Assembly: GCA_963845755.1 (NCBI GenBank)
Contig: CAWJTV010000024.1
Coordinates: forward strand, 64,001-128,000
Length of the DNA stretch: 64,000 nt
Reading direction: 5' to 3'
Source of the DNA: an uncultured Planctomycetota bacterium
Lineage (GTDB): Bacteria; Planctomycetota; Planctomycetia; Isosphaerales; Isosphaeraceae
The notes under the pieces were generated by a model. It made no database searches and had not been told where the DNA came from. It saw only the letters and a list, made by a program, of their open reading frames with translations. The position numbers were made by a program, and so were the translations under genes. Within the stretch, counting starts at the first letter, position 1, and every line of letters starts with the position of its first letter. Shown here piece after piece: positions 50,525 to 64,000 of this stretch.

Positions 50525-53500
50525 TCAAGGTCTGCTGAACTCGTCGAGCACCTTCTGATAGGTGAGTATCTCCAGCTTGTGCAAGCCATTGGGTAATCCC
50601 CGACTCTTGGCGGCCTCCCAGCTCTGCTTTGCCTTTTCTTTGTCTTTCACCTTGAGATACGCCTGCGCCAGGTGAAAGTACTTGGGGCCGGTGGGCTGCG
50701 CATGGACCGCCGCTTCCAGGTCCTTGACGGCGTTCTGGCCCTCACCGGCGCAGAGATAGACGACACCCCGTGTGTCCAGGAAGTCGGGCTGCGCCCCTGG
50801 TTCTGGATCGCCTTGTTGATCAGATCGAGAGCATCGCTCGAATTACCACCCCTCAGCGCTATCAACCAGGCGAGGTTGTTGGACGCAGTCCCCCCGCGAT
50901 CATCGATACTAATGGCGGCACGGTATTGGTCCTCGGCCTTCCGGTGCTCCTCCAGCCGCTCGTAGAGGTTGCCCAGGCCGAACGGATAGAGCGGCGATTG
51001 TGGCTTCTCCTTCATCCCCCTCTGGAGCCAGCCGATGGCGAGGTTGATCTGGGCCGGGCTAACGGGGACATTGGGGTCGGCGAATGTCAAGATAATCAGA
51101 CGGGCGACCTCATCATGGTCACCCTCCTGTTTCCACAGGGACTGGCACAACTCGACGATCGCATCGAGCTTCTTCTGCCGCACGAGGAACTGGACCAGCT
51201 TGAGGTGGTTCGGCAAGGTGGCCGATTCAGCCGCGATCCGGCGGTAGATCTGCTCGGCCAGCTCGAACTCGCCGATCTGCTCGGCCAGCCCGGCCAGGCG
51301 TTGCCGGACCTCGGGGCCGAGATTGGGCCGATCCATCGTCGAGCGGATCCGGGCTTTCGCCGCTTCGACCTGGTTCCGGGCCTTATCAAGCTTCACCTCG
51401 AGGACCAGGACCGCCAGCAGATCCGGCTGGATCTGCCTGAGTTTCCCGATCAGCTCTTGGACCTCGACGAGGTCCCGATCCTCGTTGGGTTGGTGGTGGC
51501 GCAGGAGGCTCTCTGCAAATTGATTGAGGTAAATGGGCCGCCGTCGATTGGCCTCCAGGTCGGTGGGGGTGTTGGTGCGCAGGATCAGCTCGCGATACTG
51601 GTCACGGGCATTGGTCCACTCGCCGGCGGCTTCCTCGATCTGGGCCAACAGGAACCGGTCCTCGGCATTGGCGAGGTTCCGATTGACCAGCGTGTTGAGG
51701 ACTTCGATCGCCCGCTTAAGGTGCTGCGGAGTCCCCTGGGCCTCGAGCACTCTGGCCAGGACCCTCAATTCCTCCGGCTCGTCGGCGCCGTCCTGGCGGC
51801 CGACCGCTTCCAGGATGGCCAGGGCCTTGGCCGGCTGCCGCGGGTTGCCGGTGACATACGTCAAGGCGAGGTTGCGCCGGGCCCAGGCGACCGTGGTCTC
51901 GGCCTGGGATCCGCCCTTCCGGCCCAGGATCTCGCTCAACTGCTTCTGGGCCTCGGCAATCTGGTTGGTCCGCAGGAAGAACGCGGCGAACAGGCGATCG
52001 ATCGTCGGGTCGCCGGGGTCCTTCTGGCCGGCCTTCGCCTTGACGAACCATTGCCGCGTCGCGTCATACCACTTCTTGACCTGGTCTGCCTTGTTCGTCG
52101 CCTGGTAGCCGCCCCCCAGGGTCTCGCAGCACTGGGCCAAGACCAGCGGGGCCTGGGATAGACTGGCCTCGGCCTTCTGGACTTCCAGTTCGGCATCCTG
52201 GAGTCGCCCGGTCCTGACCAGGAACTCGACCAACGTGGTGATCCACCGGCCGGGATCGGTCTTGGCCTCGGCGAGGGCGGTGCGGATCTCGGTCTCCGCT
52301 TCGGGCAGCCTCCCGCTGTCCATAAGGACCTTGACCAGCCAGATCCGCTCCTCGAAATTGCCGGGCCGGGCCTTCACCGCGTTGCGCGCGATCTCCACAG
52401 CCTGGCGGAAGTCGTGTGTCTCGACGGCGTACCGCGACGCCAGCCGCCCGAGGTCGATGAACTGGGAGATCGAGGGGAGCCGGCTCATGAGTTGGAGGGC
52501 CTCGCCGCCGCGGCTTGCGGCGAAGAGGAGCTGGACGGTGCGCCGCAAGACGGCCGGGTTGTGCGCCCCCAGATCGATGGCCCTGAGATAGGTGCTGATA
52601 AGCGATTCCTGCTTCTCTCGCACCTGGGCCGCTTCGAGCCCCCCCTGGACCAGCTCTTGCTCTTCCATCTTGGCCGTCGCCAGGGAAATCGACGCCCAGT
52701 CGGGACGGCGCGTCTTCAAGTCGGTCAGCAGGGCCCGCGCGTCGGTTCGCAGCCGCTCCCGATCGGCCTTGTCCTCGCTACGACCCGCCTGCCAGATCAG
52801 GTAGTCCACCTGGCAATAGCGGCCGTGCAAGGGGTCGAGTTTCCCGATGGACTCGATCTCCTTCTCGATCTTGGCCCGGTCGGCGGACTGGAGTGCCAGA
52901 GCGAAGAGATTGAGGCGGGGATCCAGGCTCTCGGGATCCAGCTCGGCCAGCCGCGACCACATCCGGGCCGCCCCCTCCAGGTCCTGCTGGCGGGTCAACT
53001 CGGTGGCCAGGATGGCCAGCAGGCGCCGGCGGCTCTCCTTGGGGAAGGCCTCGAGATCATCGCCCAGGCTGTTCAAGGCCGCCAGGGCCTTCGGGCCCCC
53101 CTTTCGCACCCAGATCTGCGCGCGGCCGAGCCGGAACTCCACCCGATCACCCAGCGCCGCGCGGGCTCGCTCCAGCACGTCCAGGGCCTCGTCATACTTC
53201 TTCTCCTGCACCAGCAACTGGGCCTCGGTGGTCCAGGGTTCGACGGACTGGGGAAACTGCGAGCGGGCCGTCTTCAGCGCGTCCGCCGCCTTGGCTAGCT
53301 GGCCCTGCTCCGCGAACAGCCTCGCCCGCAGGACGACCGGCTCGGCGGACCCCGGCGCGGCCTTGACCGCCGCCTCGACCAGCCGATCGATCTCGCTCCA
53401 GTCCCGCTGGCCCGGCGAACGCTGCTGGTTCCGCATGATCAGCAACCGCACCAGACCTAGCTGGACCTGGGGCACCTGGGCGACGATACGCTGGTACTGC

Positions 53501-54831
53501 TCGATCGCCCTGTCGAGGTCGCCGCGATTGACCAACCCCTGGATCCAGTCCAGCTTCGCCTGCAGGTCATCCGGGTTGGCCGCCACCGCCCGCTGGCTGG
53601 CGTCCCATTGCAAGTCCGGTTCCCCGAGCTGGCCATAGCACCGCGCCAACAGCACGTTCACACGCGCCTTGAAATCCCCCCCGAAACGGGTCACCAGCGG
53701 CTGGAGCGACGCCAGAAGCCGACGCGCCTTTGCAAATTCGTTCTTATTGACATGATAATAAGCCGTGAAATAATCGATCAGGGCCTGATTGAACCCAGCG
53801 TCTTTCATCTCCTGGATGTGCAGGAGTAGCTTGCCGGTATCGCCGCGCGCCGCCAGGATCATCGCGAGCTGATAGCGGATCGCGACCTGCTCGGGCATCG
53901 TCTTGAGGGCGATCTCCATGACCTCGATCGACCGATCCATCCGCCCGGCCCGCCGCTCGAGGTCCGCCAAGGCCAGGTAGAGCTTGGGCGCATTGGGCAC
54001 CATCTTCAGCCCCCTATCCAGCAGTTGACGGGCCGCGTCGAGCCCCGACTTGCGCTGGGCCAATTGTGCGGCCTCCAGATACGTGTCGGGCTGATCCGGC
54101 GCGAGCTCCATCGACTTCCGGAAGTCGTCTTCGGCGCCCTTGAGATCGAATCGGTGGCGATAGCGCCCGCGCTCCAGATAGACCCGATAGTTCTTGGGTT
54201 CGGACTGCACCATCGCTTCGATGACCCGATCCGCCTCCTCCGCCCGGCCGAGCCGATCGCGGAGCAATGCCGCAACACGCTGGGCGGCATCGAGCCGCTC
54301 GGGGGCCCCGTGCTCGATGGCCGACCGGTAGTAATTCGTGGCGATCGCGGGGTCGGCTTCGCGGTCCTGTTCGCAGCACCGTCCCATCAGGTACTCGAGA
54401 TGGCCGTCATCCTTCGCCTGCTTCAGGAGGCTCGTCAGGTGCTGGCGCGCCAGTTGGAATTGCGGCCCGCCCATCTCGACGGCCAGCTCCGCCGCACGCC
54501 GCCGTACGTCCACCCGACCGGGCTGACGCCTCAGGATGTCGCCGAGGATCGTCATCGCATCTTGCTGCTGCTTCTGCGTTTTTCCTTGAGTTATGAGAAT
54601 GTCAGCATATTTAATTTGTACTTCCACGTCGTCCGGGACGACCAGCAGGTGCTGCTGATACAGCTCCACGGCCTTGTTGTAGTCCTTCTGCTCCGCAAAT
54701 TGATCGGCCTGCTCGACCACGCTCCGGGCCATCCTGTCAACTTGGAGCCTCCAGATGAAATAACCGGCCAGACCGATCAGGCTGGAGGCGGCAATCAGGA
54801 CCATCAGACGCTTCAAAGTCTTTCTGCTCAT
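50525..54831 (-). CDS. very large TPR-repeat protein with N-terminal membrane anchor (frameshift near 50790)
   Basis: MSRKTLKRL followed by a TM, after RBS GAGGGG; TPR helices throughout. The tail continues FLDTRGVVYL...YFHLAQAY... to a stop at 50525. Confidence 0.88.
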
Positions 54832-55093
54832 CCCGGGATGCCCCTCAACGAAAACAACGCGGCCCATCCGCCAACTTCGGCGCCGTCCAGACGACGCTTT
54901 TTCCGACGTCATCTCCATGAACAGCTTACGATTCTCACCCTGCTATCATCAACCATGCGCCACGGAAAAATCCAGGTTCCTCCCATTCCACCGCGGACAG
55001 TTCGACCCGTCGTTGATCTACAACAACATACTCCGCCCACGCCTGCCCCGGCCGCCCACTCTCACCAATCCCTCATGGTCACCAGTCCAGTAG

Positions 55094-55665
55094 CGATATC
55101 CCGAGCATAGATCGCCGCGAGCGGGCCGCTCACATCCCCCCTCCTGGCCCGGGACTCGAAGCCCCTCCGGTGCATCGAGGGCCACTACCGATGCACCGGA
55201 CATACTTCCGCGGGAGGCCCCGGCCCGGCCGGATCCTCGCCACCCCGGCATACCGATTAACCGGACATACTTCCTGCGACCGCCCTCGGCTACCTGGCCA
55301 TACGTCCTGCCGATTAACCGGACATACTTCTTCGTACGCGATGACTTCCGAAAATGCCCCTCTGGACAACCCAGATCCTATCCTCCGAACCTCCACCCAA
55401 GACCGCTTCACCAGGGGACCAGACGCTATCTGGAATTTAGTACATAACGATTCCTGGGACATGGTTCGGGGACCCGCGCGTTTTAAACGGTTTGTCCACT
55501 AGCGATACTCTGACCGTAGTGGACGTTTGAACCCCACGATTACGGGAGCATGAAACTGAGGGGATTTCGCGATTAACCGGACATACTTTCCACGATAGTC
55601 CGGACATACTTCGGGCGTGCACTCACGATATCCCGAGCATACCACTACCGATTAACCGGACATAG
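55094..55665 (+). repeat. iteron-like 17-bp direct repeats (CGATTAACCGGACATAC consensus); putative plasmid origin
   Basis: Exact CGATTAACCGGACATA at 55254, 55311, 55570 and 55649; variants at 55094, 55189, 55287, 55448, 55537, 55593 and 55626. Immediately upstream of an AT-rich tract and the initiator gene. Confidence 0.85.
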
Positions 55666-55734
55666 TTACGGTCTGTAAGTTATTGTTTTCTAACCCCTTG
55701 CGTCGCAGAGAATTTGTTATAGACTCTTGTTAAG

Positions 55735-55786
55735 ACAAAAAGACAACAACACGGCGGCGCCGTTTGTTGTTGTTTTTTCTTTTTCT
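55735..55786. terminator. bidirectional terminator-like hairpin in the rep leader
   Basis: AAAAAGACAACAACACGGC-GGC-GCCGTTTGTTGTTGTTTTTTCTTTTT: a stem with T-tracts on both strands. Confidence 0.55.
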
Positions 55787-55862
55787 CGACCAGGAAGACG
55801 GGAGGCAGCGGAGGCCGTCGATAGGGCGATCGTCCAGGCTTACGAATTGGGAGGGGTAGCGG

Positions 55863-57410
55863 ATGGACGAATGGGACGTGCCTCTGGAAGAGATCGGTGC
55901 GTTCGACCACCTCAGCGATGAGGGGACATCTCCGGCGGATGCGGGGTGGAAGGACGAGCTGAACCTGGCGGAGTTCCCGATCGCGGCGTTGACGGACCGC
56001 ATCCCCGACGGCCAGACGACGATGGTATTCGAAGACCGGATGGAGCGGCGTGACAGCGCCCCGATCGTCCGCCGGCTCACGATCATGGGGACGCACAAGC
56101 ACGGCCTGCCCACTTCGCTGGACGATGAGGTCCTCGTTGGCCTGATCCAGTTGACGAAACGGCGGAGCAACTTCACCGATCCTCGGGTCCAGTTCTCGCG
56201 CTACGAGTTGATCGAGCTGCTCGGATGGCCGCAGAGTGGGCAGAGCTACCGCCGGATCGAGGAGGCGCTGCACCGCTGGGTGGGCGTCGTGCTGATGTAC
56301 GAGAACGCCTGGTGGGACAATGCGGCCAAGAGCTGGGTGGACGAACAGTTTCACGTGCTCGACAACGTGACCCTCTACGATCGGGAGCGGTGGCGGACCT
56401 CGGCGCGATCGGGGAAGACGGGGAGAGGAGACCGGGGCGGCTCGAAGGCCGACAAGCCCCCCCTGCCCTTGTCGAGCTTCCGCTGGAATGAGGTGATCTT
56501 CCAGAGCTTCCAGAGCGGCAACCTCAAGCAGCTCGACCTGGAGTTCTACCTCACGCTGAGGCTGCCGACGACCAAGCGGATGTATCGGTTTCTGGACAAG
56601 CGCTTCTACCGCCGATCGCGGCTGGACTTCGACCTGCGGACCCTGGCCTGCGAGCACATCGGCCTGAGCCGTTCCTACGCGCCGACCGAGTTGAAGCGGC
56701 GGCTCAAGCCGGCGCTGGAGGAGCTGGAGCAGCTCGGATTCCTGGAGCCCCTGGGGCCCGAGGAGCGGTACTCCTACGTCAAGCGGGGTTGCTGGCGGAT
56801 CATCTTCATCCGCGGTCGTGCCACCGCGGCCGAGGCCCAGGACCCCGCCGTACCGGAGGGCCAGCAGCCCAACGAGTTGATCGAGGCTCTCCGGACGCGC
56901 GGGATCACGTCCAAGACCGCTCAGGAGCTGGTCGAGGCGCATCCGCCCGGCCGCATCCGCACCAAGCTCGAGGTCTTCGACTGGTTGCTGCGCAACGAGG
57001 ATCGGCGGGTCGGCAAGAACCCGGCCGGCTACCTGGTCGCCTCGATCCGGTCCGACTACCAGGCCCCCGGCGATTACCAGACCCGAACGAGTGAGGCCAA
57101 GCCGTCCGCGGACAAGGTCAAGCGGCTCGCGGCGGCCGCGGAGGCCCAGCGCAAGGCCAGCGCCGAGGACCTGGACCAACGCGAGAAGGCTCGCGAGGCC
57201 AAACTCCGCGCCGCCTGGGAGCGCCTGACCGAAGTCCAGCGCGAGGAGATCCGGGCCGCCGTCAGGACCGAGAACCCCGGCCTGGGCCGCTGGAAGAACA
57301 TGCTCGAACCCCTCTGCCTGACCGCACTCGAGGCCCGGATGGGGGATTCGAGCGAGGCCGGCGGCAAGGGCCAGCGGCTGCTCTTCCCCGACGCCGCGCC
57401 CGCGAAGTAA
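55863..57410 (+). CDS. plasmid replication initiator protein A (RPA family)
   Basis: DELNLAEFP, GLPT..DDEVL.GL.QL, FSRYEL..LLGW...G..Y..I..AL.RW and RMYRFLDKRF; iterons lie upstream. Confidence 0.85.
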   Translation: MDEWDVPLEEIGAFDHLSDEGTSPADAGWKDELNLAEFPIAALTDRIPDGQTTMVFEDRMERRDSAPIVRRLTIMGTHKHGLPTSLDDEVLVGLIQLTKRRSNFTDPRVQFSRYELIELLGWPQSGQSYRRIEEALHRWVGVVLMYENAWWDNAAKSWVDEQFHVLDNVTLYDRERWRTSARSGKTGRGDRGGSKADKPPLPLSSFRWNEVIFQSFQSGNLKQLDLEFYLTLRLPTTKRMYRFLDKRFYRRSRLDFDLRTLACEHIGLSRSYAPTELKRRLKPALEELEQLGFLEPLGPEERYSYVKRGCWRIIFIRGRATAAEAQDPAVPEGQQPNELIEALRTRGITSKTAQELVEAHPPGRIRTKLEVFDWLLRNEDRRVGKNPAGYLVASIRSDYQAPGDYQTRTSEAKPSADKVKRLAAAAEAQRKASAEDLDQREKAREAKLRAAWERLTEVQREEIRAAVRTENPGLGRWKNMLEPLCLTALEARMGDSSEAGGKGQRLLFPDAAPAK

Positions 57411-58077
57411 CGAGGACTCCGAGACTCCCGCGTCAGGCGGGCCGGGTTTCCGGCAACCGTGTTCCGTGGTCAGCATGGCATGGCGACGGACTTGCCGGGG
57501 CGGCATCATCGGCCGGGGATCGCCCTGACCGCCTGGAACGACCCCCGATCCCTCACCGGGCATTCGCCCGCTTCGCATGGGGCCATCGCCCCGTGATGAT
57601 CGCGGCGCAAGTTGGCATATCTTGCCAGCTTTTTGGCGGAGCTCCATCCCCGATCTCTCTGGTTGGAAATGAGTTGTGGCGAGCCTGCGAATCCGTCGGC
57701 GCAGTCCGACGGCCCGTCTGGGGAGTGATCGCGCGTAGGTCATACTATTAGGATGCCGCAACTTTTCGAAAGCGTTAATGCACCTAGCGCCGACTTAGGC
57801 CGTTGAGACTCCCGAACTCTCGACTTCGGCGGCAGATACGAAAATCCAAAAAAAATTCAAGGCGGGTGATTAACCGACCTCCCGGTGCTCCTGAAGGGAC
57901 GGGTGCGTGGCGAGGACTCATCCTGGTATAACCCAAATTCATCGCCAGACAGGTGACGGGACGGTTATTTCTTGGAGAGGATCCGGTCGAGCTGGTCGGG
58001 GATCTCCAGGTTCAAGGTGGACAGCCTGTGTCTCAGCTCCTCGAGATAGTCGAAGTTGAACTGAGAGTCGGTTCCAA

Positions 58078-58210
58078 AAGCCCCAGAGGGGCGACCGGAC
58101 GTAGCCAGGGGCGTGAGCCCCTGGACGATCGACCGCGACCCCCTCGACCGTCGTTCGAGACCCGGAGGAGCGACAGACGTCCTCAGGGCCACAGAGTTTC
58201 TGTCGCCCCT
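58078..58210. repeat. REP/BIME-like cluster, truncated on the right
   Basis: GCCCCAGAGGGGCGAC; GTAG + CCAGGGGC-GTGA-GCCCCTGG (58101-58124); ACCCGGAGGAGCGACAGA ... TCTGTCGCCCCT, where the last arm stops short. Confidence 0.75.
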
Positions 58211-58272
58211 ACCTTCTAGACATATGTCTGACCGGGTACAATCGGTCAACACTTGTTTAGGAGGTCTGGCCT

Positions 58273-59133
58273 ATGGGCGTTCGCAATCGAGACCGCGAAG
58301 TCATTGAGCGGTTGGATTCCAAGACCCTCGATGCTCGCTTTACCACTGAGATCGAGCAGGGACTTAACTGTTCCCCCTTCGAGTCCGAAGCCGTTCTCGG
58401 CGTCGTCAAAGAGGTCTACTTTCCCTTCCTCTCCGCCGAGGCCACCACGCCTTCCCCAGGGAAGATCTCGCTCATGGCGGTCGCCGCGGACGAGCCGGCC
58501 GGAAAGCCCGTCGCCGCCTGTCAAAAGCAGACCGTCTGCCTCACACTCCATCGCGGCAAGATCGACGATCTCTTGTTTCAGCAACACGGCCCAGCCGGCT
58601 TTCGCCGGGCTCGAATCCTCGACCTTTGCCAACAGGCCCTCAGTCAAGGAGCCTTGCTCACCGCTGAAGACCTCGCCTATCGCGTCTTCTTCGTCACACC
58701 GCGAACCATCTCGCGCGACCTGATCGCGGTCCGCCAGGCCCACCCCGATGTCCTGATCCCGATGCGCAGTACGCTCCACGACCTCGGACCGGTCCTCACC
58801 CATCGCACTCAAATCGTCCGCCTTGCACTCCAAGGCAAGACCACGTCGCAGATCTGCCAGATCATGCACCACTCTCCCGAAGCGGTCGCCAACTACCTGT
58901 CCACCTTCGCGCGCTGCGCTCAACTCGCCCACAAGGAGATGCAAGCCGGGCAGATCGCCTTCCTCCGCCGCCGCGGGGTCTCCCTCGTCAACGCCTATCT
59001 CCAGATCCTGGAGGAATGCCGGCGCGATCGCAACATGGCCTATCATCTGGACGAACTCCTCAGGATCGGCTCCTGCGGCGGCGGAAAAAAACTAGGCTGG
59101 CAAAAGTGGCTGGAAAGCCCTCCGGGAGCGTAG
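58273..59133 (+). CDS. DUF1670-like protein A (extreme C-terminus replaced by an IS)
   Basis: RBS AGGAGG; CQQALSQGALLTAEDLA, R.TLHDLGP.LTHR and HHSPEAVANY. Native sequence ends at GGGKK (59091). Confidence 0.75.
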   Translation: MGVRNRDREVIERLDSKTLDARFTTEIEQGLNCSPFESEAVLGVVKEVYFPFLSAEATTPSPGKISLMAVAADEPAGKPVAACQKQTVCLTLHRGKIDDLLFQQHGPAGFRRARILDLCQQALSQGALLTAEDLAYRVFFVTPRTISRDLIAVRQAHPDVLIPMRSTLHDLGPVLTHRTQIVRLALQGKTTSQICQIMHHSPEAVANYLSTFARCAQLAHKEMQAGQIAFLRRRGVSLVNAYLQILEECRRDRNMAYHLDELLRIGSCGGGKKLGWQKWLESPPGA

Positions 59134-60796
59134 AAAGAGGAGATCGAACCCCGGGAGGAATCCACCCATGCGCAAACGACGACAACGACCACGCCCGCAA
59201 CCGGACCGGGCCCTGACCCTGACGCCGGTCCTTCTTGACTGCCCCGAATGCCAGCACCGGACCTATGCCGACTACAATAACTATCGCACCATCAGTACTC
59301 TCGACGGCGTCTTCCGACTGACCCTGACCATCCGACGCTGCCCCAATCCCACCTGCCCCCGCTTCCTCCGCCCCTATCGGCCCGAGGCCGAGCCCCACTT
59401 CGCCTTGCCTTATCATGAGTTCGGACTCGACGTCATGGCGCTGGTCGGCCGGCTCCGCTATGCCGAGCACCGCAGCATCCCCGAGATCCACCGCGAGCTC
59501 ACGCACCGCGGGCTCATCCTGGCCGAACGCACCGTCACCAACCTGTTGGACCGCTACGACGAGCTGCGGTCCCTGGCCACGGCCGATCCCCAGCGACTCG
59601 GTCCGCTGTTGCGCCCGCAGGGCCGCGTCATCCTGGCCATCGACGGCCTGCAGCCGGATGTCGGCCACGAGGTCCTCTGGGTGCTGCGCGACTGCCTCTC
59701 CGGCGAGATCCTCCTGGCCAAGAGCCTGCTGTCGTCCACGGCCCAGGACCTGGCCGGCCTGATCGACCAGGTGCGGAAGGTCCTGCCGGTGCCGATCACC
59801 GGCGTGGTCTCCGACGGTCAGGAGAGCATCCGCAACGCCGTGGCTATCGCCCTCAAAGGTGTCCCCCATCAGCTCTGCCATTTCCACTACTTCCGCGAGG
59901 CGGCCAAGCCGATCTACGAGGCGGATCGCCACGCCAAGAAGGAGTTGAAGAAGCGGGTGCGGGGCATCCGGAAGATCGAGCGCCAGGCGGAGAAGGAGCT
60001 GGAGGACGACGCGGAGGACGCGGAGGCGGAGGTGGTGCGGGACTACTGCGCCGCGGTGCGCGGGGCCTTGACCGACGACGGACTGCCACCGCTTTCGGCC
60101 TCCGGGCTGAAGCGGCAGGATCGATTGAGCCGGATTGCCGCCAGCTTGGACGATGTCGTCGCCAAGGCGGGCGACCTGCCCGGGGGTTTGAAACGGCTGA
60201 GGCAATTGCTGCGGCGCGGGCTGGAGGAGACGGCCGCGCTGTTCCCGGCGGTGCGCGAGTCGTACCAATGGGTCAAGCGCGCCGCCCGGATCCTCAAGAA
60301 CGAGGAGGGGCTGCCGGCGAAGAAGGTGCGACGGCGGCTGGTGCAACTGCTGGCGCGAATGCGCCGGGCGGTGGCGACGACGGACGAGCCCGCGGTGCGG
60401 GCGGGTTTGAAGCAGTTCGTGAAGGTGACCCGGAGCTACTGGCCGGGCTTGTTTGCCTGCTACGAGTCGTCGGATCTGCCGCGGACGAATAACGACCTGG
60501 AGCACACCTTCGGCAGTCATCGCTACCACGAGCGCCGGGCCAGCGGTCGGCGTCGGGGGTCGCCGGGCCTGGTGGTGATGGGCTCGGCGCGGGTGATCTC
60601 GGGGCTGGCGACGCGGCTGCGGCCGGACGAAGGCTTGGTGTTGAGCCCGGGCTATGTTGAGGACTGGCAGGAATGGCGCGCGGAGTTGGAGGTGCGACGG
60701 GAATCGCGGCGGAAGCAACGCCGGTTCCGTCACAATCCCGAGGCCTATCTCAAGGACTTGGAGCAACGCTGCCTCCAGCTAACTTTGCCAGCCTAG
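59092..60796 (+). mobile_element. 1705-bp insertion sequence (unclassified/ISNCY-type)
   Basis: Left TIR CTAGGCTGGCAAAAGTGGCTGGA; right TIR (reverse complement) CTAGGCTGGCAAAGTTAGCTGGA. Flanked by A7 on both sides (59085-59091, 60797-60803). Confidence 0.92.
59168..60796 (+). CDS. DDE transposase
   Basis: CPEC/C..C zinc motif, LAIDGLQ, VVSDGQ, CHFH and RTNNDLE. The stop codon is the end of the right TIR. Confidence 0.9.
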   Translation: MRKRRQRPRPQPDRALTLTPVLLDCPECQHRTYADYNNYRTISTLDGVFRLTLTIRRCPNPTCPRFLRPYRPEAEPHFALPYHEFGLDVMALVGRLRYAEHRSIPEIHRELTHRGLILAERTVTNLLDRYDELRSLATADPQRLGPLLRPQGRVILAIDGLQPDVGHEVLWVLRDCLSGEILLAKSLLSSTAQDLAGLIDQVRKVLPVPITGVVSDGQESIRNAVAIALKGVPHQLCHFHYFREAAKPIYEADRHAKKELKKRVRGIRKIERQAEKELEDDAEDAEAEVVRDYCAAVRGALTDDGLPPLSASGLKRQDRLSRIAASLDDVVAKAGDLPGGLKRLRQLLRRGLEETAALFPAVRESYQWVKRAARILKNEEGLPAKKVRRRLVQLLARMRRAVATTDEPAVRAGLKQFVKVTRSYWPGLFACYESSDLPRTNNDLEHTFGSHRYHERRASGRRRGSPGLVVMGSARVISGLATRLRPDEGLVLSPGYVEDWQEWRAELEVRRESRRKQRRFRHNPEAYLKDLEQRCLQLTLPA

Positions 60797-60824
60797 AAAA
60801 AAATCACTCGTGGGAGGTCCGCCC

Positions 60825-61427
60825 ATGAGTAGCAAACCTGACTTCATCCGCAAGAAATACGGCCCCCTCCGCGAGAAGACCTTGCGGAACGCACTCGCCC
60901 ACCGGATCGTCAAGGAGTTCCCGCGAATTGGAGGAAACCGCATCTGTCAATTGTGCGCAGATATGATACTTGAAGTTGTCTTCAAACATATGCGCCCAAA
61001 GACCACCTCGTTCACGGCCAGGCGCTCTGGATGGCCGTCAGCCTCAACGACCCGCCCGGTCGTCGCCAACGCATCGCGGACGTTCGACCTGATCCCCGTC
61101 CTCCTCGAGATCTCCACCGCCGAGGACGCGCAACGGCGCATCGATCGCCTCCCCGCTCCTCAACGCTTGTTGTGCAAGGCCGTCCGCCTCTGCGAGCAGG
61201 CCTACAAACAGGGGGGATTGCTCTCCAACTGCGACCTCGCCGAGCTGCTCGGCGTTGACGACAGTCGGATCGCTCATGTGCTGGCCGAGCATGAGCGCCT
61301 CACCAGCACCGTCATCCCACGACGCGCCACACTCCACGATGTCGGAACAGGATTGACTCATAAGCGGATTATTTGCTGGAAGCGATACGCCGAAGGCAAG
61401 GAGCCGCATGTTGGGACCGATCTTTGA
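60825..61427 (+). pseudogene. DUF1670-like protein B, truncated by IS21 insertion
   Basis: RBS GGGAGGT; CEQAYKQGGLLSNCDLA and RRATLHDVG.GLTHK, paralogous to protein A. Homology breaks at 61409, before the HS...Y segment. Compensating indels near 61000 and 61080. Confidence 0.75.
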
Positions 61428-61453
61428 TTCGGCAGCGCTTTCGATCATTGGAC

Positions 61454-61615
61454 CGGCAGCGCCTTCGTCTGGTTCCCAGCGCGGCACTTCTGACCGTTTG
61501 TCTCTCCGTTCTCGTTCTCGAGAGGGCGATCGCTTCAACGGCAGCGCCTTCGTCTGGTTCCCAGCGCGGCACTTCTGACCGTTTGTCTTGCCGTCCTTGT
61601 TCTCGAGAAGACGAT
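61454..61615 (+). repeat. 85-bp-period direct repeat, two copies
   Basis: 50 identical nt at 61454-61503 and 61539-61588, then an imperfect continuation; a partial copy at about 61430. Confidence 0.92.
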
Positions 61616-61713
61616 ATACTGGCATGTCAGCGTCGGGTCTGCGTTGGAATAGCGCTCGAGGAGAACGCGATCAACATTCTCCCCGAGCTTTTCCCTCGAG
61701 AGTAGCCGCTCCC

Positions 61714-62291
61714 GTGGGCACTCCTCACGTTACGAAACGATACCGCCGTCTGCCCAGAGGCCGCCGACCGCGCCCACGGATCTGCCTGCGCAAAGGTTGC
61801 CGACGCAAGTACCAGCCGCGATGCTGGAACCAGCGCTACTGCCAGGACCCGGAATGCCTGCGGGAAGTCCGCCGTTGGCAAGCGGCTCGCCGCCAGGCAA
61901 AACGCCGCCAAGACGCCCGCGCCAAAGCCCAGCATGCCCAGGCCGAGAAACAGCGCCGCCAGCAAGCCAAAGCCACGCCCAAAGCTATTGAGAACCCGGA
62001 CGTTGCGCCCGCGCGTGGTCACGCAGCAGAAAATTTTTCCCCCACCCCTTCTGCGATCGGCCTGGCTGCTACCAACCCCCGGTGAACTCATCGCGCAACC
62101 CGGCTCGCTACTGCGGCACCGCCTGCCGTCAGGCCGTTCGCAACGTCCGGGACCGCGAACGTAAGTGGCTCGCTCGCGGCACCTTGGATGGCCGGAACAA
62201 GCGCGCCATCGAATACCAGGCCGCACACCGCAATCGATCCCGGTGTCAGCAAGACACCACCGATCGGCCACCCCGGTCACCGCCGCTATGA
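61714..62291 (+). CDS. basic Cys-rich (zinc-finger-like) hypothetical protein (frameshift near 62040)
   Basis: CLRKGC..YCQDPEC, then in the next frame CDRPGC..YCGTAC: two similar C4 modules. Confidence 0.6.
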
Positions 62292-62388
62292 CGACCCTTC
62301 CCCCAAGGCGCCGGTCGTCAATTATCGCGTGGTACCGGCAGACTGCTTTAGCCTGGGCATCCTGTTGTTCACCCCCAGGAGCCCCAGC

Positions 62389-62802
62389 ATGATACCCAAG
62401 CGCATTCTGGTTCCCCACCGACTGCGGCGGCCTCCCGCAACCGGTTGGTCCTGGCTCGACGGTCGCTTCGTGCGCGAGCACATGGACCAGCTCTCACGCG
62501 AGGCCGTGCTGTTGTACTTCTTTCTGTCAGCCGTGGCCGATGTCAACGGCCTGTCCTTCTACAGCGATGGCACCCTGGCCGCTCGGTTGCGCATCCCCCT
62601 GCCCAGCTTGCTCCAGGCCCGTGACGAGCTTTTGGCCTACGACCTGATCGCCTACGAACCGCCGTTAACCCAGGTCCTTTCCTTGCCTCCGCGCTGTCAA
62701 CGCCGCAGATCCGAGCCCGGCGGCGGGCTGATGCAACTGGGCGATATCCTGCGCCAGGCTATCGCGTCGACACCTCTTGACAAGGAAAGGAGTCAGCCAT
62801 GA
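62389..62802 (+). CDS. winged-HTH-like hypothetical protein coupled to istA
   Basis: RBS AGGAG; WSWLD.RF, LLYFFL.AVAD.NGLSFYSD.TLAARL. The stop overlaps the istA start (ATGA). Confidence 0.75.
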   Translation: MIPKRILVPHRLRRPPATGWSWLDGRFVREHMDQLSREAVLLYFFLSAVADVNGLSFYSDGTLAARLRIPLPSLLQARDELLAYDLIAYEPPLTQVLSLPPRCQRRRSEPGGGLMQLGDILRQAIASTPLDKERSQP

Positions 62803-64000
62803 AGGTGGCCTTGTGGGCCGAGATTCGTCGCCTGGCCGAGATCGAGAACCTCTCCGCTCGGGCCATCGCCGGGCGACTTCACTGTTCCTGCCGCACGGTC
62901 GCTCGAGCGCTCCAGTTGCAGCAGCCTCCCACTCACCGCGACCCCTGCCGTGTCAGTTCCTTGGACCCCTACAAGTCCAAGATCGACGCCCTGCTGGCCC
63001 AGTATCCCGAGCTGTCGGCGGTGCGCGTCCACGAGGAGATCGCTCGCGGTCCCAATGGCTACACCGGCAGCGTGATTACCGTCCGCCGCTACGTGCGGTC
63101 CCTTCGCCCCGCGCGGTCGCGTCTATCAAGAAGTCCACTACGAACCGGCTCAGGCCATGCAGGTCGACTGGGGCGAATGCGGCCACGTCCAACTCGGGAC
63201 CACGACCCGCAAGGTCTCGGTCTTGGTGGCCGTCCTCTGCTACAGCCGGATGACCTACATCGAATTCACCCTCTCGCAGCGCAAGGCGGAATTCTATCGC
63301 GGCCTGGTGCACGCCCTGGAGTTCTTTGGTGGCAGTCCCCGTGCCATCATCTTCGACAACTTGAAAGCGGCCGTGATCAATGGCTCCGGCCGCGCGGCCT
63401 GCTTCCATCCCGAGTTCCTGGCGCTCTGCGGCCACTACTACTTGCAGCCGATCGCCTGCCAACGGCGCGATCCGGAATCCCAGGGGATTGTCGAAGGGGG
63501 CGTGCGCTACGTGAAACGAAACGCCCTGGCCGGTCGCAGCGACGAGCTCGTCCGCTTCGAGGACTACCTCGCGCTGGCACCCCGGTGGCGCGACGAGATT
63601 GCCAACGTCCGGATTCATGAGACGACTCGAGAACGCCCGGTAGACCGGTTTCATCACGAGCGATCGCGGCTCCGCGCACTTCCCACGATCCCGTTTGACA
63701 CCGCCGAGATCGTGCTGGCGGTTGCCAGTCCCCATGCGCGGGTCAAGTTCGATGCGAACCGTTACTCGGTGCCGCCGCACCTGGCGCGGCAGACGGTCAC
63801 GATTCGCGCCGACGGTCAGGAAGTCGGCATCGTGCACCAGGGCCAAGTCGTGGCCCGGCATTCCCGCTGCTACGGGCGCCGGCAACTGATCGTGCTGCCC
63901 GAGCACCGCACCGCGGCACTGAGTATGGGCCGGCGGTCGCCGAGCTCGGCGCTGGAACAGGCCTTTGATGCCCTCGGCCCCGAGGCTCGGCAGTTCCACC
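62799..64000 (+). CDS. istA: IS21-family transposase IstA (partial; frameshift near 63113)
   Basis: N-terminal HTH, LDPYK, QVDWG, YSR, FFGGSP..IIFDNLK, GIVE and NRYSVP. Confidence 0.93.

Follow-up and report, generated by a model that had tools for sequence, protein, structure and literature searches.

Tandem DUF1670 genes in an Isosphaeraceae genome probably mark an undescribed insertion sequence family that appears to enter DNA hairpins

The window analysed here is a stretch of 64,000 nucleotides (nt) from an uncultured Planctomycetota bacterium of the Isosphaeraceae (GenBank assembly GCA_963845755.1, contig CAWJTV010000024.1, positions 64,001 to 128,000). The source genome comprises 14.3 Mb on 49 contigs and is 87.9% complete; the window contig is called C24 below, other contigs are named likewise, and coordinates without a contig name are those of the window. 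We found that positions 58210-61411 are probably the larger part of a dead copy of an undescribed insertion sequence (IS) family. The intact element is ~1.94 kb long, and its only genes, A and B, encode paralogous proteins of the DUF1670 family (Pfam PF07900). These proteins are possibly transposases of a new class, a reading that we hold tentatively and weigh below against its alternatives.

The structure of the element was deduced from several copies. It reads TACCT + TCTAGACATATGTCTGACCG ... CGGTCAGACATATGTCCGGA + TC, and this structure is the same in both copies of the source genome, in four miniature derivatives and in other genomes. The left end lies at 58210-58235 on the plus strand, where the tip TACCT is followed by the left inverted repeat TCTAGACATATGTCTGACCGG with its palindromic core AGACATATGTCT, common to the second copy and the four miniatures. 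In the intact copy the tip and left repeat are followed by a 60-nt leader, A (~281 amino acids, aa), B (~257 aa), ~260 nt without an open reading frame (ORF), the right repeat and TC. The ATG of B lies 8 nt before the stop codon of A in intact copies, so that the genes overlap. A and B are the sole long sense ORFs of these copies, and the other ORFs of at least 150 aa overlap them in other frames. In a metagenome contig (L109, 1-2085), two DUF1670 elements are arranged head to tail, 36 bp apart.

In the window locus the DUF1670 unit is cut into three pieces, 58204-59090, 60797-61411 and C24:129552-129996, which are 99.3-99.5% identical to a second locus on contig C20. The C20 copy has the same limits and unrelated flanks. 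It was hit by three other ISs, two of which split A, and the third of which lies ~40 bp past the right tip; its B is intact. At C20:774517-774562 it carries 46 extra bases, including a run of ~25 A, at the A/B junction, where the window copy has another IS. No DUF1670 gene beyond these two loci was found by tblastn of the whole genome. The 16-nt end motif (at most 2 mismatches) occurs at 13 places in the genome, and only the two elements and the four miniatures have element-like flanks. The miniatures are ~119 bp long and have the same tips, unrelated interiors and the same kind of site. Their existence means that action on the ends in trans is possible.

In four other genomes of the taxonomic family, DUF1670 pairs are bordered by these ends as well. 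In one Planctomycetota metagenome-assembled genome (MAG), two copies differ at 2 of 1939 positions, and their flanks differ at 278 of 437 and 305 of 424 positions. An origin of the two copies in the source genome (C24 and C20) by segmental duplication is likewise contradicted by their unrelated flanks. Furthermore, the end sequence follows the protein clade; it is GACATATGTC in elements whose B is at least 73% identical, TTGCCAAATGGC at ~64-67% and TTGACATTTGGC at ~59%. These subfamily ends, together with TTGCCATATGGC, differ from one another yet keep a palindromic core. Taken together, these comparisons indicate that the DUF1670 unit moves as a block. By generic criteria, namely inverted repeat ends, multiple copies in unrelated contexts and an empty site, the element would be classed as an insertion sequence. 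The initial annotation of this DNA, made from the letters alone, had proposed a mobile element, not described before, that consists of DUF1670 paralogues in tandem. That proposal is borne out by the ends, the second copy in another context, the miniatures, the unoccupied target sites and the near-identical copies elsewhere.

The target of insertion is a hairpin in nearly all cases. The window copy lies in a dispersed repeat of ~260 bp, whose left half is at 58044-58209 and whose other half continues from C24:129996, outside the window. This repeat has internal palindromes and ~20 copies on many contigs, and GCCCC at 58205-58209 is the 5' arm of one of its hairpins. In ~12 other copies of the repeat (e.g., on C32), the flanks of the window copy are contiguous and form the empty site ...GTCGCCCC|TCCGGGGC... 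The hairpins are GC-rich, and the insertion point lies between the 5' arm and the loop, GCCCC^NNNGGGGC. The ~260-bp repeat is also the landing site of one miniature (C42:136.5 kb).

We tallied 21 metagenome and MAG insertions in which both flanks were readable, leaving out loci whose flanks were short or whose tip or right arm could not be recognised. In 20 of the 21 insertions, the 5 nt to the left of the tip can pair with a 5-mer located 5-9 nt beyond the right repeat, and a rough estimate for chance is ~16%. The arms are mostly GCCCC/GGGGC, with the compensated variants GCCCT/AGGGC (three insertions), ACCCT/GGGGT (one) and GCCTC/GAGGC (one). After the right tip, the bases of the loop differ between insertions (TCC, TTC, AAC, AAA, AGC, GGAT and others). 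Since the loops are variable and do not always start with T, nothing is duplicated at the target. A two-base duplication of CT had seemed to occur from the first ten insertions, and was ruled out by the loops that do not start with T. Thus, insertion is free of duplication, oriented, and located at the junction of arm and loop of hairpins.

ORF A (58273-59133, plus strand, 286 aa) matches PF07900 with 124.2 bits against a cut-off of 25 (E 6.6e-36). Its native coding part is 58273-59084/59091, the native C-terminus being taken from the second genomic copy; the final 14 codons (from 59092) and the stop codon are supplied by a nested ISNCY-family element. ORF B, as read in the window (60810/60825-61427, plus strand), scores 73.8 bits against the same cut-off. 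Its genuine 5' part is 60825-61411 (plus strand), with an ATG at 60825 after GGGAGG, and it matches profile positions 3-161 only (1.6e-20). The intact B on C20 has 257 aa and scores 143.4 bits in a six-frame scan. NCBIfam has no model matching A or B. BLASTP aligned A LCQQALSQGALLTAEDLA...RSTLHDLGPVLTHR with B LCEQAYKQGGLLSNCDLA...RATLHDVGTGLTHK at 41% identity over 64 aa (E 2e-8). This is the sole stretch in which A and B can be aligned, and it contains both motifs that the initial annotation had quoted as shared, so that its claim of two adjacent DUF1670 paralogues was correct. B as read in the window is not an intact gene. Compared with the C20 copy, it lacks 1 nt after 60994 and has 1 nt inserted at 61083, between which the reading frame is off, and its last ~62 codons lie outside the window at C24:129552-129746, past an IS21-family element.

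Other details of the initial annotation fared differently. The span it gave, 58211-61408, agrees with real breakpoints, the left tip at 58210 and the cut of B by the IS21 element at 61411/61412. The long plus-strand ORFs of the span are three, A, a 542-aa ORF and B. The statement that no known transposase belongs to the unit needs to be divided, because the 542-aa ORF is a transposase, and it belongs to an independent nested IS outside the DUF1670 unit. A conventional integrase at the right end, then unseen, would have spoken against the proposal; beyond the window there are only the remainder of the IS21 element, the 3' end of B, a small RNA gene and the right inverted repeat.

Q125, R165, G172, H177, H200 and Y208 (numbering of A) are invariant in 51 diverse family members that share 27-63% identity. 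In 53 B-type proteins, where the tyrosine is Y211, these six columns do not vary either. The conservation of Arg, His and Tyr that the initial annotation wished to see checked is therefore real, for one Arg, two His and one Tyr. Gene A is under purifying selection, as its ratio of nonsynonymous to synonymous substitution (dN/dS) is 0.11-0.17 in all six computable comparisons with relatives; a seventh locus had no start and was skipped. D98 is the only nearly invariant acidic residue outside the helix-turn-helix (HTH) modules described next. Fused forms also exist, with two DUF1670 stretches in A-B fusions of 523-546 aa and three in forms of 930-952 aa, and they consist of DUF1670 only. Among individual entries, we noted the three-unit proteins of 930-952 aa and one DUF1670-GGDEF protein of 433 aa (P0177, P0196, P0235 and P0246).

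An AlphaFold model computed with an alignment has a pLDDT of 88.7. It predicts three N-terminal helices, a beta hairpin (64-71, 85-91), a long helix, a winged helix (~100-171) and two HTH units. We read both paralogues, A and B, as having this make-up, with a small N-terminal domain of helices and a beta hairpin ahead of the winged helix and the two HTHs. Alignment to MarR-like wings would place R165 and G172 in the wing. The next HTH begins with H177, and H200 and Y208 are located at and on its third helix, respectively; this HTH is also matched by Pfam HTH_23. Prediction of an A-B complex gave a score of 0.12, where the mark is 0.32, and has no bearing either way. In the ESM Atlas, only small clusters of archaeal HTH proteins were hit, with scores of at most 0.80.

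A and B could be placed in none of the known transposase classes (DDE, DEDD, HUH, serine or tyrosine) at E<=0.01. For DDE enzymes, there is no rve or DDE match in Pfam, and the model has strands only at 64-71, 85-91 and 127-129. With only three strands, an RNase H fold is impossible. For HUH enzymes of the Y1 type, there is no Y1_Tnp match, and the invariant columns contain no His-hydrophobic-His. For DEDD enzymes, neither PF01548 nor PF02371 matches A or B. Chains of the Xer/Cre/Int, RNase H-fold, HUH and resolvase types were absent from the Foldseek rows listed and from the 50 best VIA-align rows, an absence that excludes none of them.

Besides the two genes, the element carries a structured RNA. 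An 11-mer, GAGGATAGGGC (at most 1 mismatch), located downstream of B, persists at 55-60% identity of B despite changed end repeats. Around it, between B and the right repeat, there is a promoter-like sequence (TTGACA-17-GATAAT-like) followed by a structured RNA of ~170 nt, which is present in nearly all element copies that have this region. The RNA has 26 predicted pairs, 18 of them with compensatory changes. Pairing holds in 96.9% of cells, a level attained by 0 of 500 shuffles; with the partner slid, it falls to 35-43%. Its core is GAGGAUAGGGC...CCGAGCG...UUGGC...CGAUAAAC, and Rfam 15 has no family for it. A covariance model found seven copies in the source genome. Two are in the DUF1670 elements (C24:129774-129939, outside the window, and C20:775392-775557). 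Of the others, two directly follow rve-type (IS3/IS481-like) transposase genes, one follows a weak rve remnant, one is an orphan and one is a weak match; further coordinates are C33:530383-530554 (minus strand), C12:126880-127034 (minus), C34:536470-536620 (minus) and C48:6169-6288 (plus). Contigs of RNA libraries from three studies contain the RNA gene and the right end at ~97% likeness, which is no proof of transcription. The first 400 bases of B are uncovered in all four RNA-library runs, which is no proof of silence. In one metagenome locus (L046, 1923-2449), a single element has the RNA module in two tandem copies.

What do A and B do? We suggest that they are the element's own transposition proteins. 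They would bind the palindromic core of each sub-terminal repeat as oligomers or hetero-oligomers, recognise the target as a hairpin, and cut and join it without a staggered gap. The lack of a staggered-cut footprint and the hairpin target suggest a conservative or single-strand mechanism, and the substrate would be single-stranded or extruded hairpin DNA. The invariant Tyr with Arg, His and His would be the only candidate active site. A covalent intermediate on this Tyr (Y208 in A, Y211 in B), aided by the Arg and the two His, would be the most plausible chemistry. A catalytic Tyr on a winged-helix module has precedents in type II topoisomerases. In its full form, this reading states that A and B are a new transposase class built of HTH-type modules only, in which the invariant Tyr cuts and rejoins DNA at the stem-loop junction of a hairpin and inserts the 1.9-kb element without duplication, the two paralogues each serving one end or strand and the RNA possibly acting as a cofactor. 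We regard it as possible, short of probable.

The leader may add a layer of control. The leader RNA (58205-58278, plus strand) is predicted to fold back, so that CCUUCU of the tip pairs with the Shine-Dalgarno sequence AGGAGG of A (58259-58264). Its minimum free energy is -35.5 kcal/mol (z -4.57), and none of 200 shuffles was as stable. The pairing of tip and Shine-Dalgarno sequence is also in the minimum free energy structure of one of the two other subfamily leaders folded. Transposase genes of IS10 and IS50 have a fold-back protection, which the window leader resembles. The fold-back would shield gene A from read-through transcripts.

Several observations weigh against A and B being a hairpin-directed transposase. 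Searches of Pfam and NCBIfam with A and B returned DUF1670 and sub-threshold HTH matches only, with no catalytic domain. Sequence and profile searches of the PDB returned only winged HTH regulators (E>=0.005), and Foldseek returned nothing from the PDB at E<=0.001. VIA-align of the whole model found winged-helix and HTH structures only (best Z 6.7, root-mean-square deviation 2.6 over 63 residues), and with residues 1-105 alone the best Z was 4.8 and none reached 5. The invariant His, His and Tyr are located on an ordinary HTH and could simply contact DNA. Of the 21 insertions, one lacks a hairpin; another insertion besides these (G032) is in a tandem array of 9-mers, and the hairpin of the C20 copy is imperfect. 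Both copies in the source genome are broken, the copy number is low (two, plus four miniatures), and mobility is read from sequence comparison. Finally, the RNA is a portable module of several IS families and is not specific to DUF1670.

The strongest alternative accepts that the element is mobile and states that A and B do no more than provide DNA-binding specificity or regulation, while a host enzyme or a transposase encoded elsewhere cuts and joins. Such a division of labour exists, as Xer does the cutting and joining for IMEX elements. It would explain why the whole protein is an array of DNA-binding modules without a recognisable nuclease or recombinase fold, and it agrees with the miniatures, whose ends can be served in trans. 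However, the two-gene unit occurs in Planctomycetota, in a Nitrospiraceae MAG and in an archaeon, and a universal helper would be needed. In the source genome, no other element has these ends, and the rve-type ISs that share the RNA show none; an inverted-repeat search around the one on C33 also found no DUF1670-like ends. Moreover, the ends diverge together with the proteins, and six residues including the Tyr are invariant in both paralogues. We consider this explanation rather unlikely, yet it deserves to be taken seriously.

Another alternative assigns the central role to the RNA, as a guide, splint or catalyst, with A and B as its protein partners. Element RNAs are used in movement in other families, the bridge RNA of IS110 and the omega RNA of IS605. 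A covarying RNA of ~170 nt with its own promoter in nearly all copies would suit such a role, and the invariant GAGGAUAGGGC in its core is partly complementary to the left junction GCCCC-TA-CCTTC. Against this, the RNA also occurs after rve-type genes at two loci (and after one weak remnant) and alone at one more, and the four miniatures have no RNA. Where the core varies (A or C at the 8th base), the compensating change is within the RNA (column 24 with column 76), and the flank stays GCCCC. Thus, we see no evidence for a guide role in particular; among RNA segments compared with target and ends, the invariant core alone has a likeness to the left junction, and the flanks do not change with its variants. 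A central role of the RNA is improbable.

The initial annotation had favoured a third possibility, that A and B are cryptic tyrosine recombinases related to Xer and Int, acting as several subunits like those of RIT elements. Its basis was a motif in A, THR-x2-IV-x3-LQG-x10-HHS-x6-Y, which is present, although the gap between IV and LQG is x3 and had been given as x2. R165, H177-(K/R)178, H200 and Y208 are invariant, the spacing of H/K...H...Y (22-23 and 8 residues) resembles that of box II of XerD, and insertion without duplication suits a conservative recombinase. However, neither A nor B matches PF00589 at E<=0.01, and none of the 43 six-frame matches in the genome falls in the two loci. When the DUF1670 profile was compared by hhalign with 11 tyrosine-recombinase catalytic domains of the same genome, the probability was 0.2% (E 0.29), and the 19 aligned columns were not the motif. 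In the model the motif lies on winged-helix and HTH modules, R165 is located in the wing 12 residues before H177, and there is no beta-hairpin Lys. Structure prediction with Foldseek, the check proposed at that time, gave no match of any kind at E<=0.001 and, among the rows listed, HTH-type folds only. Kinship with Xer and Int, or a RIT-like trio, is thus very hard to maintain. The caveat that the likeness could be only a shared helix-turn-helix was right about the fold; the invariant Tyr may still be catalytic. Least credible of all is that the unit is not mobile and consists of duplicated ordinary LuxR/CsgD-like regulator genes, as the JGI names and the HTH modules, the only recognisable ones, might suggest; this is contradicted by the inverted repeat ends, empty sites, miniatures, near-identical copies in unrelated flanks and patchy distribution.

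This distribution was surveyed in several collections. Of 100 sampled genomes of the same taxonomic family, 7 have PF07900, and wherever both genes occur they are adjacent; the only sampled genome of the same genus gave no match, and a sample of 300 genomes across the phylum contained PF07900 in 2. DUF1670 also occurs in a Nitrospiraceae MAG (66% identity) and in Methanosarcina acetivorans, a control genome. We collected 1666 word-sharing homologues, the best 120 of which are mostly 282 aa long and on contigs of ~1-3 kb. Location on such short contigs, as is usual for repeats in assemblies, supports mobility. Most close homologues are named 'DNA-binding CsgD family transcriptional regulator' by JGI. 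At E<=0.001 there are 1113 representative clusters, and tblastn of A gave no match in 72,556 plasmids or 50,697 phage records. In the literature, we found no paper naming DUF1670 or PF07900, and broader searches returned nothing on such an element. PMC13107129 deals with an unrelated Rep family, DUF7845.

The window copy was interrupted by two other ISs. The first is an ISNCY-family (IS892-like) element of 1705 bp at 59092-60796 (plus strand), with inverted repeats at 59092-59114 and 60774-60796. The repeats are 23 nt long, 87% complementary and end in CTAGG...CCTAG; ends that start with CTAG are typical of the IS892 group. Its transposase is the 542-aa ORF (59168-60796, plus strand), whose homologues, in Nostoc, Rhodovastum and other plasmids, are 50-56% identical and annotated as 'ISNCY family transposase'. 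In Pfam and NCBIfam it has weak IS66, IS256 and MULE DDE matches, all below the cut-offs. The element (59085-60803) has 14 further full-length copies in the genome at 90-100% identity, and runs of ~7 A or T flank all 14 of those examined. Comparison with them gave the two copies of its 7-bp target duplication, AAAAAAA at 59085-59091 and at 60797-60803. Thus, it is an independent IS, inserted in an A7 tract at the A/B junction. The ISNCY family shares transposase homology with this nested element, whereas to the DUF1670 unit it is an unrelated passenger in the A/B junction. At least 6 ISNCY copies are located in the same A-run of a gene that is itself repeated (flanks ...GTGCGGCGTACGCTAAAAAAAA | CGGCATGACCAACCG...); this run is probably the slippery one of a different IS. 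In a metagenome locus (L070), a relative of the nested element adjoins a DUF1670 RNA core.

The second is an IS21-family element of ~4.14 kb (plus strand), which occupies 61412-64000 and 1551 bases beyond the window, with ends TGGGACCGA...TCGGTCCCA (TG...CA). It is 99.9% identical to a copy on contig C40, and the left copy of its 5-bp target duplication, CATGT, is at 61407-61411. ORF 63157-63999 matches NCBIfam NF033546 (IS21 transposase) with 164.6 bits against a cut-off of 160. The DUF1670 sequence resumes after it at C24:129552, 1.5 kb beyond the window. At its left end (61418-61611) there are two direct-repeat units of 85 nt, 87% alike and preceded by a 24-nt partial copy, which are probably multiple terminal binding sites. 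The istA frame is split into overlapping ORFs (62799-63620 and 63157-63999+) in a region common to the C40 copy. With ISNCY in the A/B junction, IS21 through B and B frameshifted, the window copy is dead and cannot move by itself.

Upstream of the element there are other features. Seven copies of a 26-nt repeat (CGATTAACCGGACATACTTCC...) at 55189-55674 precede a 515-aa ORF (55863-57410) with a Replication initiator protein A domain (PF10134, 2.3e-11). The whole region of 55189-57410, which adjoins the element, looks like an iteron-type replicon or the remnant of an integrated plasmid. Upstream of this region, a 1423-aa ORF on the minus strand (50647-54918) looks like a long helical-repeat protein.

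To our knowledge, all known prokaryotic ISs use a few enzyme types, DDE, DEDD, HUH, serine and tyrosine. The DUF1670 element is compact and evidently mobile, occurs in distant bacteria and an archaeon, and has proteins of none of these types. If A and B do the chemistry, they would be a new transposase class with exact, hairpin-directed and duplication-free insertion, which would be interesting for its mechanism and might serve as a tool. Otherwise, the element would be a new kind of parasite of host enzymes. In addition, more than 1000 protein clusters that now go under 'CsgD family regulator' or 'DUF1670' probably belong to ISs, at which metagenome assemblies break. The portable RNA, which IS3/IS481-like elements have as well, raises a further question of its own.

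The element can be compared with four known systems. Tyrosine recombinases and RIT trios have no sequence, profile or fold relation to A and B; there are two genes instead of three, and there is no long core site. What is shared is the invariant Arg/His/His/Tyr and a conservative-looking insertion. IS630/Tc1-mariner transposases have a DDE/D domain after their HTHs and produce a TA duplication, neither of which applies here. Like their N-terminal paired-like double HTH, A and B have tandem HTHs (sub-threshold HTH_23, HTH_28 and HTH_29), which may read the terminal inverted repeats. In behaviour, the element is closest to IS200/IS605 and IS110/IS1111. It differs from IS110/IS1111 in that A and B have no DEDD/RuvC-like or Tnp domain, and in that its RNA shows no loop covarying with target or donor and is shared with rve-type ISs. 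However, both have sub-terminal inverted repeats, no target duplication, insertion in repeated palindromes or hairpins, and an internal structured RNA. In contrast to the HUH Y1 transposases of IS200/IS605, DUF1670 proteins have neither an HUH motif nor an RRM-like fold, there are two paralogous proteins instead of one small TnpA, and the ends of the element are true inverted repeats, which start 5 and 2 nt inside its tips, where IS200/IS605 has dissimilar subterminal hairpins. Nevertheless, as in IS200/IS605, there is no target duplication, insertion is strictly oriented and directly follows, on the 3' side, a short conserved sequence (the 5' arm GCCCC in this element), DNA hairpins are involved, and a tyrosine would be the most plausible nucleophile.

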